Below are positions 9,614 to 12,043 of a DNA stretch of 64,000 nucleotides, piece after piece. The notes below the pieces were generated by a model. That model was given only the letters and a program-made list of their open reading frames with translations. It searched no databases and was not told the DNA's origin. This DNA is from Escherichia phage Turkey5: sequence record PQ471516.1; one strand, 5' to 3'. Position numbers and translations under genes: made by a program. Positions within the stretch are counted from its first letter, which is position 1. Each line of letters starts with the position of its first letter.

Positions 9614-9871
9614 ATGAGTCAAGAAAACCAACAAGAACAAGTTATCCAACTAGACCTAATCGACCTAATCAATGCTGCACGTATTCTCGAAGCTGCTGTT
9701 GCTCGTAATACTTTTACCGTTGATGAATTGGTTCAAGTCGCACCAGTTGTTTCTAAAGTTGTTTCTTTTGCACAAACTGCACAAGCAGACATTGAAGCTA
9801 AAGAAGCGGCTCGTCTTGCTGCTGAAGCTGCTGAAGCTGGTGAAACTAACAACGTTCAAGAAGGGGAATAA
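9614..9871 (+). CDS. hypothetical small protein (85 aa; start corrected from 9599)
   Basis: ATG at 9614 has GGAGAG 7 nt upstream, whereas ATG 9599 has no RBS; Ala/Glu-rich C-terminus. Confidence 0.5.
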   Translation: MSQENQQEQVIQLDLIDLINAARILEAAVARNTFTVDELVQVAPVVSKVVSFAQTAQADIEAKEAARLAAEAAEAGETNNVQEGE

Positions 9872-9873
9872 TT

Positions 9874-10515
9874 ATGGCTATTCGTCACACTGGTGTAATG
9901 CGTAATACAGGTTCACGAGTTTTCGTTGTATGGCGTGCACTACCAGATGATCCACAGCATTGCTTGGTAATTTATCGTGATTCACTTCCAGAAGCATATG
10001 TATTTGCAGTAACTGATATTGTAAACAACCAAGGTCAAAGCTCAATAGACCTATGGGAAGTTATGCACAAGATTGGTTATCTAGATGGACGTAAAATGCT
10101 AGATGTTCTACACAATATGCAGTACTTACATCGTGTTCGTACTTGTGACATTGACATGCATACTGGTGGTAACAACAAGATTGCTCTTGACGTTCTAAAC
10201 GCTGCTATCGATGAAGGTAACAAAGTACACCAAGATAGCAAAGTAAAAGATTTCAATCCATTTGCACCACAAGAAGTTGATACCAGCGTTGAAGATGCTA
10301 CTATCGTAGGTCAACTACTAGCTGATGCTCGTAAACACGAGAAACTAGCTCAAGACTTCTATGAGCGTGCATATAACCTAGAACCTTCACTTCGTACTGA
10401 AGTTAAAGTTGAAGCAGTAACTCCAGGTACATTCACTGTTGAATTCCCTGAAGGTATTTCACAAACTAAAGCAATCGAACGTGTTAAGAAAGCTCTTGCA
10501 GAGCGTAAAGCATAA
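9874..10515 (+). CDS. hypothetical protein (213 aa)
   Basis: Starts 3 nt after the upstream stop with GGGGAA RBS; no recognisable motif. Confidence 0.6.
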   Translation: MAIRHTGVMRNTGSRVFVVWRALPDDPQHCLVIYRDSLPEAYVFAVTDIVNNQGQSSIDLWEVMHKIGYLDGRKMLDVLHNMQYLHRVRTCDIDMHTGGNNKIALDVLNAAIDEGNKVHQDSKVKDFNPFAPQEVDTSVEDATIVGQLLADARKHEKLAQDFYERAYNLEPSLRTEVKVEAVTPGTFTVEFPEGISQTKAIERVKKALAERKA

Positions 10516-10520
10516 GTTCT

Positions 10521-11117
10521 ATGAAAATAACCGAATTAGATGAAGCAATTCGTGGCTTTTCTAATACGTTTTTCAGTGGCGGGGCAGATGGTGCTGACCG
10601 CCATTTTACATTATATGCTCTTGAAAAGGGATTCAATGTAATCAACTTTTCTTTCAGGGGTCATAATCATAGTGTAGATGAAGATACAATATTAGAAATA
10701 CCTTCTCATATTTTATGTGATAGTACAGTACTGAAACAATTAAACATGGCATGTTACTCTTTGCAGCGTAAAGTACCTAAGCCTGGTTCTTACGTATTCA
10801 ACTTACTAGCACGTAATCGTTATCAAATTCTAAACACAGAACGAGTTTATTGTATTGCAAAAATCGAATCACCAACTAGAGTTAGTGGCGGTACTGCATG
10901 GGCAGTTCAAATGTATATGGATAGTGTTGACAATCCTGAAATCTATTGTTATGATATGAATTCAAAAAGTGTGTATACATTTGACAATACAAATAAAGAG
11001 TTCGTTGAAGTATTCACTATTCCTGCACCACATGGTAATTGGACAGGAATTGGTTCTCGAAATGCAACTGTTAAGCATTTTGAGCATTTCAAAACATTTT
11101 TCAAGGAAGACAAATGA
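10521..11117 (+). CDS. SLOG/YpsA-like Rossmann-fold protein (GGADGAD motif), upstream of thymidylate synthase
   Basis: N-terminal FFSGGADGADRHFTLYALEKG resembles the GGxxGxD phosphate-binding loop of SLOG/DprA-like proteins; its stop overlaps the thyA start (ATGA). The fold call is tentative. Confidence 0.35.
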   Translation: MKITELDEAIRGFSNTFFSGGADGADRHFTLYALEKGFNVINFSFRGHNHSVDEDTILEIPSHILCDSTVLKQLNMACYSLQRKVPKPGSYVFNLLARNRYQILNTERVYCIAKIESPTRVSGGTAWAVQMYMDSVDNPEIYCYDMNSKSVYTFDNTNKEFVEVFTIPAPHGNWTGIGSRNATVKHFEHFKTFFKEDK

Positions 11118-12043
11118 AACAACTACAAGAGCTATATCAAAAAATTCTAGATGAAGGCGTAGAAAGCGTTGACCGTACTGGTGTTGGTACAATCAAACTA
11201 ATCGGACAACAAATGCGTTTTGATTTGTCGGAAGGTTTTCCAGCAGTGACAACTAAACGTTTAGCTTGGAAAGCAATGACCTCGGAATTGTTATGGTTCA
11301 TTGAAGGTTCCCATGATGAACGTCGTCTATGTGAAATTCTACATGGTACTCGTGATTGGGAAAAAGTGACAATCTGGACTGGTAATTACAAAAACCAAGG
11401 TGTTAATCTTGGATACACCGATGGTGAGTTGGGTCCAGTTTATGGCAAACAATGGCGTTGCTGGGAAGATTACAAATTCAGTGCTGTTACCGAAGAAATT
11501 CAAGAATTGAAAGACAAAGGATACAAAGTACTGGATTATACAGGTTCACATGGTGTTGTTATGAAACGAACCACTGACCAGCTAATGGATCTAATCAATG
11601 GTATCAAAGAAGATCCATACGGTCGTCGTCACATTCTTTCCGCATGGAACGTTGGTGAACTTGACCAAATGACATTACCACCATGTCATAGCTTTGTTCA
11701 GTTCTGTGTTGTTCAAGGTAAACTAAGCTGCATTCTACATCAACGTAGTGCTGATATGTTCTTGGGTGTTCCATTCAATATTAGTAGCTATTCTCTACTA
11801 ACACATATTATTGCACAAATTACTGGGTTAGATGTTGGTGAGTTTATTTGGAATGGTGGAGACTGCCACATTTACAAAAACCACGTTGAACAAGTAAAAG
11901 AACAACTACTTCGTGAGCCACACGAACTACCAGAATTATGGTTAGATCCTTCAATTACTTCTATCGAAGATTTGAAAATGAATTCATTCAAACTACTGAA
12001 TTACAATCCAATGGCAACAATCAAAGCACCAATGGCTGTATAA
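11114..12043 (+). CDS. thyA: thymidylate synthase (ThyA/Td type)
   Basis: Collinear with T4-type td as recalled: MKQLQELY...DRTGVGT, catalytic LPPCH, QRSADMFLGVPFN with the dUMP-specifying Asn, phage-type insertion. No intron interrupts the ORF. Confidence 0.9.
   Translation: MKQLQELYQKILDEGVESVDRTGVGTIKLIGQQMRFDLSEGFPAVTTKRLAWKAMTSELLWFIEGSHDERRLCEILHGTRDWEKVTIWTGNYKNQGVNLGYTDGELGPVYGKQWRCWEDYKFSAVTEEIQELKDKGYKVLDYTGSHGVVMKRTTDQLMDLINGIKEDPYGRRHILSAWNVGELDQMTLPPCHSFVQFCVVQGKLSCILHQRSADMFLGVPFNISSYSLLTHIIAQITGLDVGEFIWNGGDCHIYKNHVEQVKEQLLREPHELPELWLDPSITSIEDLKMNSFKLLNYNPMATIKAPMAV

Follow-up and report, generated by a model that had tools for sequence, protein, structure and literature searches.

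A SLOG-fold protein encoded directly upstream of thymidylate synthase in Escherichia phage Turkey5, and its possible part in deoxynucleotide supply

On the map of phage T4, frd, the gene for dihydrofolate reductase (DHFR), stands immediately upstream of the thymidylate synthase gene td. In the Escherichia phage Turkey5 sequence that we analysed (record PQ471516.1; a stretch of 64,000 nucleotides, hereafter the window), the gene directly upstream of thyA specifies instead a protein of 198 amino acids (aa) with the glycine-rich sequence FFSGGADGAD at residues 17-26, and it is the fold, the family and the possible role of this protein that concern us here. Iyer, Burroughs, Anantharaman and Aravind assign most viral SLOG domains to a YpsA-like clade, report them from 31% of jumbo phages with sporadic fusions to helicases, nucleases and guanylate-kinase-type domains, and predict that they process or sense ADP-ribose derivatives (PMC9503650); for the YpsA clade, GxD/E has been given as the motif predicted to bind substrate (PMC6459960). 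Our literature searches found no functional or experimental study of the phage SLOG family. The kind of protein and its family were already known, and what is new is the quantified linkage of the family to genes for deoxynucleoside-monophosphate (dNMP) kinase or thymidylate synthase (ThyA), together with the exclusion of the idea that the protein replaces DHFR.

Four open reading frames (ORFs), all on the + strand, are packed between 9614 and 12043, and encode proteins of 85, 213 and 198 aa followed by ThyA (309 aa); each lies where a sequence-only reading of this DNA had put it. That reading had called the 198-aa protein SLOG-like, and structure prediction bears it out: The AlphaFold model, built with an 80-sequence alignment (pLDDT 97.3, pTM 0.92), is a three-layer alpha/beta Rossmannoid with two pocket-lining glycine-rich loops and matches solved SLOG proteins, so that a SLOG fold can be confidently predicted. 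A DHFR fold, or the lack of any Rossmann-like fold, had been named beforehand as the outcome that would contradict the assignment, and neither appeared. Searches of the Protein Data Bank (PDB) by sequence, with the protein itself and with the 80-sequence profile, returned no matches, and a fold search of BFVD recovered uncharacterised viral relatives only. The protein matches PHROG 768 (‘DprA-like DNA recombination-mediator protein’; E 4.4e-23, residues 3-155), a match that denotes sequence-cluster membership alone, the name carrying no tested function. Its match to the Pfam family YAcAr/DUF2493 (PF10686; 19.5 bits, E 8.9e-4, residues 5-45) falls under the 28.2-bit gathering threshold, and the same model matches 12 of 80 relatives at E <= 0.01 (best E 1.2e-4).

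Conservation was read from 80 homologues, the most distant of which share about 30% identity. The first glycine-rich loop, S19-G20-G21-A22-x-G24-A25-D26, is invariant at S19, G20, G21, G24 and D26, and thus contains the GxD/E signature of the YpsA clade as invariant G24-A25-D26; in the second, G123-G124-T125 is invariant together with W127 and A128. The C-terminal strand ends in G178-S-R180, of which G178 and R180 are invariant, and a helical insert peculiar to the phage SLOG family holds the invariant residues L95, R98, N99 and Q102, with a beta-hairpin at residues 150-164. Two invariant arginines in a conserved pocket speak for a ligand that is specific and phosphorylated.

The sequence-only reading had also implied that the 198-aa protein stands in for DHFR, and this part of it fails. 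The protein has neither the fold of DHFR nor similarity to it in sequence, and DHFR is encoded elsewhere in the genomes of close relatives. Over 9500-12100 the sequence shares 99.0% identity with Escherichia phage vB_EcoM_JNE01 (355.6 kb; Asteriusvirus, a 121Q-like jumbo phage) and 77-79% with 121Q, PBECO4 and some 40 further jumbo phages of the Rak2-like group. In JNE01 a homologue of folA occupies 204060-204535, at a distance of about 108 kb from thyA; the 121Q homologue is gene 42, about 40 relatives carry one, and the gene adjoins RNase H. In phage CBB, likewise, DHFR (CBB_313) is far from thyA (CBB_223) (PMC5259590). A tblastn search with E. coli FolA, which recovered the annotated DHFR genes in Asteriusvirus genomes, found nothing significant within the 64-kb window. 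The SLOG fold and the DHFR genes encoded elsewhere together rule out a DHFR substitute, and the occupation of the T4 DHFR position by a SLOG gene is a coincidence of map position, with no functional replacement.

The phage SLOG family is large, almost exclusively phage-borne and already catalogued (PHROG 768). A profile search of 1.84 billion representatives of clusters formed at 50% identity yielded 2629 clusters at E <= 1e-3, of which 833 reach E <= 1e-30, and most members are stand-alone proteins of 175-210 aa. Among cultured phages it is carried by the Rak2-like group, Atu_ph07, Phosso, Cr30, Pam2 and crAss-like phages, and it occurs also in several huge metagenomic phages. One pattern scan of 185,579 bacterial and archaeal species genomes gave 13 loci, all in Bacteroidota and at 25-30% identity; the bacterial relatives in Flavobacterium and Paenimyroides form a trio of genes for SLOG, a WYL-WCX regulator and topoisomerase III (loci L102, 4974-9117, and L094, 4965-9070). 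This trio adjoins miaB-like and sigma-54 activator genes, a context unlike the phage one.

Several members are parts of larger proteins. One is a fusion of a histidine phosphatase with SLOG, which fits a phosphorylated small-molecule ligand, and in one viral relative a 3'-5' helicase is joined to the domain. In a 2942-aa protein (P0251) NADAR follows straight after the SLOG domain; in the N4-like Klebsiella phage Pylas the domain lies near residue 1000 of the 3819-aa virion RNA polymerase (MH899585.1, 42470-42943), and in a crAss-like phage it lies inside a 5801-aa protein (cr130_1, gene 13777-31182). The representative search gave eight more SLOG-bearing proteins of 1700-3900 aa, and ejection into the host is expected for all proteins of this giant kind. 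No fusion of dNMP kinase to SLOG was present in the 150 best representatives.

Taken over the whole family, the gene neighbourhoods speak in favour of a connection with dNMP metabolism. Our neighbourhood sample comprised 79 IMG/VR loci, of which 18 are Rak2-like and 59 are distant loci (31-40% identity to the query) with the SLOG ORF detected; the SLOG proteins of the set have a median pairwise identity of 43%. In all 18 Rak2-like loci thyA lies downstream of the SLOG gene, either immediately or about 300 nucleotides (nt) on. In the distant loci the characteristic neighbour is a gene for dNMP kinase (DNMK, PF21448), which stands directly upstream, usually overlapping, in 40 of the 59 and within 3.3 kb on the same strand in 11 more (downstream in two of these, L037 and L053), i.e., on the strand of the SLOG gene in 51 of 59 altogether; the remaining eight have neither arrangement. 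Grouped at 60% identity, the SLOG proteins form 22 clusters, 16 of them linked (nine DNMK-adjacent, five DNMK-near, two ThyA-linked) and six unlinked. DNMK is also the commonest neighbour within 3 kb (44/59 loci, the next family reaching 28/59). When five distant homologues were looked up singly, four were immediately downstream of, and overlapping, a DNMK gene. Phages unrelated to one another show the pair in differing arrangements: Atu_ph07 has DNMK then SLOG, the SLOG match in Sinorhizobium phage Phosso overlaps the DNMK gene, and cyanophage Pam2 has the order primase-ATPase-x-SLOG-DNMK-x-polymerase, a replication module. A search for a DNMK gene within the 64-kb window found none.

In one huge-phage lineage, a homologue of the anti-CBASS phosphodiesterase Acb1 is convergent with DNMK-SLOG (L003, 6591-7058, - strand; L004, 5169-5636, - strand). 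In T4, acb1 (57B) is the neighbour of gene 1 (dNMP kinase), and Acb1 beside DNMK-SLOG may be an old T4-like arrangement. A family-wide association with Acb1 was considered and dropped: The recurrent 162-aa downstream neighbour is PTH2-like and unrelated to Acb1.

Within the window, the four genes are very probably one transcription unit, expressed alongside genes of DNA metabolism, to judge from their tight junctions, from the promoter-like site and terminators that bound them, and from the resemblance of that site to a published promoter class. The sequence-only reading had described gaps of 3-6 nt and an ATGA overlap; the 5-nt gap between genes 2 and 3 (TAAgttctATG, 10516-10520) and the overlap of gene 3 with thyA (11114-11117) are exactly as described, and the first gap, after 9871, is in fact 2 nt. 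Chance does not account for the arrangement, the gene order being shared by 121Q, phAPEC6 and each of the 18 Rak2-like viral loci retrieved. On the 5' side, an alignment of six Rak2-like phages shows TGnTATAAT invariant and the -35-like hexamer conserved at the equivalent of 9552-9579 (Table 1), from which we infer that the site would act as a promoter. At the aligned site, GAP32 has TGAAACG as its -35; in the CBB paper, a -35 of the TGAAACG type defines a ‘divergent RpoD-like’ class found mostly upstream of DNA-synthesis genes (PMC5259590). A compact TGAAAC-N5-TATAAT element was also considered as a recurrent phage promoter and rejected, since it showed no enrichment in the window and the conserved element is a normally spaced -35/-10 pair.

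The hairpin that precedes this site was listed by the scan on the - strand only, and its role as a + strand terminator is our reading of its letters and T-rich tail. Its position is kept in 121Q, phAPEC6, RaK2, GAP32 and the viral locus L018, the stem letters differing and the pairing being preserved in the alignment. Upstream of the first gene, the element ACATGGAG(A/T)G is conserved in six of six aligned phages and includes an alternative ATG, at 9599, for the 85-aa gene; the start at 9614 appears the better one, because GGAGAG lies 7 nt upstream of it and the RaK2 element lacks the ATG. A second strong promoter-like site is found within the SLOG gene, some 160 nt ahead of thyA (10927-10955, + strand; TTGACA-17-TATGAT with an upstream TG, 11/12 matches), and could either give a separate thyA transcript or be a product of chance. 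In GAP32, two extra small ORFs of 102 and 117 aa (4706-5014 and 5595-5948 of locus L022) flank the SLOG gene to make a six-gene unit, and a similar pair (~102 and ~117 aa) occurs in other Rak2-like loci outside Asteriusvirus (L016-L030); these flanking ORFs were either lost by Asteriusvirus or gained by the other Rak2-like phages.

Because ThyA makes deoxythymidine monophosphate (dTMP) and DNMK consumes it, a role related to dNMPs is the simplest common denominator of these contexts. Our proposal, which is tentative and has a reasonable if not commanding chance of being right, is that the 198-aa SLOG protein is accessory to the phage's dNMP supply, and the resemblance of the operon's promoter-like site to the class described ahead of DNA-synthesis genes in CBB and GAP32 is counted in its favour. 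The pocket formed by the two glycine-rich loops, the GxD aspartate and the two invariant arginines would bind a ligand of the nucleoside-5'-monophosphate type and might cleave its N-glycosidic bond. A pyrimidine dNMP would be the most economical candidate, since ThyA produces dTMP and dNMP kinase accepts it as a substrate, and the protein could serve in pool sanitation, in rebalancing, or as a regulatory or channelling subunit. What the analysis shows directly is how the operon is built, the fold, the conservation of the motifs, the DHFR gene elsewhere and the neighbourhood counts; the ligand class, any catalysis and any partnership with ThyA or dNMP kinase are things that we infer.

A number of observations weigh against this proposal. 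Genes for tail sheath, gp13-like and gp15-like proteins recur near many of the DNMK-linked loci, and these shared further neighbours imply that part of the DNMK linkage is inherited synteny and not a set of independent events; the thyA linkage occurs in the Rak2-like clade only and counts as one evolutionary event. The SLOG domain is also found inside a virion RNA polymerase of the N4 type, within giant crAss proteins and beside NADAR, and it follows gp46/47 in Cr30 and adjoins topoisomerase III in Flavobacteriia, none of these five settings being one of dNMP metabolism. As for catalysis, the PGGxGTxxE motif of LOG proteins carries the catalytic glutamate, and at its position the phage family has an invariant alanine (A128 in G-G-T125-A-W-A128). 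This gives no support to hydrolysis of the LOG type, and the protein may do no more than bind its ligand; if catalytic, it would have to use other residues (D26, D134, perhaps Q130).

A wider claim, that the whole family is an unrecognised component of viral DNA-precursor synthesis, an enzyme or regulatory subunit acting on deoxynucleoside 5'-monophosphates, we regard as unlikely. Such a protein might, for example, be an N-glycosidase that strips unwanted or non-canonical dNMPs ahead of phosphorylation, or a partner that senses dTMP or deoxyuridine monophosphate (dUMP) and so ties ThyA to dNMP kinase; with either, one would understand why the SLOG gene, in most of the large phages that have it, is translationally coupled to DNMK or ThyA. 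In a bolder variant, one pocket would read both dNMP-like metabolites and immune signals of the ADP-ribose type, and so link precursor supply to defence evasion. Settling the role would annotate some 2,600 protein clusters (at 50% identity), and it would reveal whether DNA-precursor synthesis in large phages includes an extra step of control or sanitation. For the window itself the outcome is mostly a clarification: This is an ordinary conserved nucleotide-metabolism operon, with no missing DHFR.

The proposal of a dNMP-related role competes with the published general prediction for viral SLOG domains. Under that prediction, the protein would bind or cleave immune signals derived from ADP-ribose (isomers of cyclic ADP-ribose, cADPR, and the like), and its position beside thyA or DNMK would be incidental, an explanation with a real, if modest, chance of being correct. 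Action on ADP-ribose derivatives is what has been predicted for viral SLOG (PMC9503650), and the SLOG domain of ThsA is a known sensor of 3'cADPR (PMC11204291). Within the family, the explanation draws on the NADAR that follows SLOG in the 2942-aa member, on the presence of the domain in host-ejected proteins (the Pylas virion RNA polymerase and the 5801-aa crAss protein), on Acb1 next door in the huge-phage lineage, and on an NAD synthetase gene two genes upstream in Atu_ph07. However, no Macro, NADAR or Nudix partner was found in the operon or in the examined part of the window, most family members are translationally coupled to biosynthetic enzymes, the Acb1 neighbour is confined to one lineage (the recurrent 162-aa neighbour being PTH2-like), and the promoter class is one reported for DNA-synthesis genes and not for the early host-takeover region.

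That the protein is a DprA-like mediator of recombination or replication, which would bind single-stranded DNA (ssDNA) and load or assist UvsX or protect the strand, is an improbable alternative. Aravind and colleagues have suggested that DprA/Smf proteins of jumbo phages may be extra ssDNA-binding proteins (PMC7824862). The PHROG 768 label and the RefSeq product name point in this direction, as do several contexts: The Cr30 gene comes directly after gp47/gp46, that of Pam2 lies between primase/ATPase and DNA polymerase, the relatives in bacteria have a WYL regulator and topoisomerase III for neighbours, and one viral relative carries the 3'-5' helicase. The protein itself, however, does not resemble a DprA. 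The DprA model PF02481 is absent from it and matches one of 80 relatives (E 0.006); its isoelectric point (pI) of 6.4, against a family median of 6.6, indicates no overall basic character; and the dominant neighbours are nucleotide enzymes and not recombination genes. DprA carries additional N- and C-terminal domains, for which 198 aa are too few.

Thymidylate synthase (Td) and DHFR (Frd) have reportedly been found in the T4 baseplate, in old and disputed accounts, and the operon is embedded among virion structural genes; the products of the operon, ThyA included, might accordingly be packaged or act in particle assembly. We consider this very improbable. Mass spectrometry of virions of phAPEC6, an Asteriusvirus, did yield peptides of ThyA (gp259c, 3 peptides, 10.7% coverage), of the orthologue of the 213-aa protein (gp262c, 1 peptide) and of the MoxR ATPase (gp265c, 6 peptides) (PMC7247149), but such very small numbers of peptides could stem from abundant proteins carried over. 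Moreover, CBB_223 and its upstream neighbours figure in the main text of the CBB paper only under nucleotide metabolism (PMC5259590), 121Q genes 565-568 are not flagged as structural whereas their neighbours are, and the promoter is sigma-70-like and not of the late ATAAATA type. Nor could the SLOG protein have been detected in phAPEC6, its ORF being unannotated there and the protein therefore missing from the mass-spectrometry database of that study. The phAPEC6 gene is intact in the DNA (MK817115.1, 198499-199047; a single tblastn piece with 77% identity to residues 1-183), and the GenBank record annotates only two small ORFs over it (gp261c, 138 nt; gp260c, 198 nt).

Barely conceivable, finally, is a folate or pterin partner of ThyA, i.e., a DHFR substitute or a cofactor carrier comparable to T4 frd-td or to pterin-binding cpYpsA carriers: It has for it the gene's place immediately upstream of thyA, where T4 has frd, and against it the bona fide DHFR elsewhere in JNE01, 121Q, about 40 relatives and CBB, the linkage of most family members to a dNMP kinase, which needs no folate, and the fact that ‘molybdenum carrier’ is for PDB 3imk an annotation name only.

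Table 1. Positions of the operon's genes, its putative signals and the genes upstream of it, in window coordinates
Feature	Position	Strand	Remarks
MoxR-type AAA ATPase gene	6671-8002	+	upstream of operon
Gene for protein with DUF2201 metallopeptidase-like N-domain and VWA domain	8079-9503	+	domains by Pfam
Hairpin GGAATGG...CCATTCC with T-rich tail	9519..9539	+	putative terminator closing the upstream MoxR-ATPase/VWA unit; 5' boundary of operon
Promoter-like site, TGGACA-16-TGaTATAAT	9552..9579	+	extended -10; 11/12 consensus matches
Shine-Dalgarno GGAGAG of 85-aa gene	9601..9606	+	7 nt before ATG at 9614
Gene 1, 85 aa	9614..9871	+	acidic, pI 4.1; judged helical from sequence alone; Rak2-like phages only
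Gene 2, 213 aa	9874..10515	+	N-terminal SH3/KOW-like beta-barrel (residues ~1-115), long helix, small C-terminal helical element
Gene 3, stand-alone SLOG-fold protein, 198 aa	10521..11117	+	YpsA-like clade, closest to cpYpsA
Gene 4, thyA, classical thymidylate synthase, 309 aa	11114..12043	+	start overlaps stop of gene 3 (ATGA)
Strong hairpin terminator	12046..12073		12-bp stem then T7; between convergent thyA and structural gene 12077-14041(-)

The positions of the operon's other genes are given in Table 1. The thyA product is recognised by Pfam PF00303 (E 4.6e-99, 331 bits) and by the NCBIfam equivalog NF002497 (334.5 bits, cutoff 327), and its translation shows the motifs DRTG, PPCH, QRS, FNISSY and GDCHIY, in which, as in E. 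coli ThyA, PPCH holds the catalytic cysteine, DRTG the arginine, and FNISSY the asparagine for dUMP. The 85-aa and 213-aa proteins had been said to have no recognisable motifs, and this agrees with our searches: Neither has a Pfam match, and neither they nor the 198-aa protein have a match in NCBIfam or PADLOC. The 85-aa protein does belong with phrog_13789 (E 1.2e-25), of unknown function. Its gene is directly upstream of the 213-aa gene in 18 of 18 Rak2-like loci and in none of the distant loci, both genes being restricted to Rak2-like phages, where they always precede the SLOG gene in this order. The JNE01 annotation gives the four genes as three hypothetical proteins and thymidylate synthase; the RefSeq equivalents in 121Q are genes 565-568, of which 567 is named ‘DprA-like DNA recombination-mediator protein’.

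The two genes upstream of the operon resemble a MoxR-VWA pair within the structural module. RefSeq labels the VWA/DUF2201 gene of 121Q ‘HNH endonuclease’, a label that the Pfam matches do not back. The window also contains very large ORFs on the - strand (38813-48853, 3346 aa; 15000-21362, 2120 aa; 21501-26387, 1628 aa), which are probably tail-fibre or baseplate proteins, given their position near the counterpart of 121Q gene 571 (‘long tail fiber proximal subunit’).

Compared with known SLOG proteins, the phage family shares most with the YpsA clade. With YAcAr/DUF2493 and YpsA proper (PDB 2nx2), the 198-aa protein has the clade signature in common, GxD/E after the first glycine-rich loop, and some GenBank records call its orthologue a ‘DUF2493 domain-containing protein’. 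From the cpYpsA or ‘molybdenum cofactor carrier’ family (PDB 3imk, 2iz5) the phage family differs in its own helical insert and the beta-hairpin at 150-164, and in being phage-borne and linked to DNMK or ThyA, and no pterin connection was found; the cpYpsA model PF12694 does not match the 198-aa protein and reaches two relatives below threshold (E 8.5e-4 and 3.7e-3), and the carrier name given to 3imk comes from annotation and not from an assay. The LOG/PpnN model PF03641 likewise gave no match for the 198-aa protein. Unlike DprA/Smf and ShosA, the DprA-like antitoxin of Shosta, the protein has no significant PF02481 match, no accessory domains and no basic character, and the family has nucleotide enzymes for neighbours instead, so that the DprA-type product name in databases over-states what is known of it. 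The likeness to T4 frd-td consists in a thyA gene preceded by a co-transcribed accessory gene, and the difference is that here this gene does not encode DHFR; moreover, T4 td is interrupted by a group I intron, whereas the thyA of the window is a continuous reading frame with no intron. The wider likeness is to the set of T4 enzymes that synthesises deoxynucleoside triphosphates, in that the phage encodes ThyA, DHFR, dNMP kinase, dCMP deaminase and ribonucleotide reductase (PMC7247149, PMC5259590).

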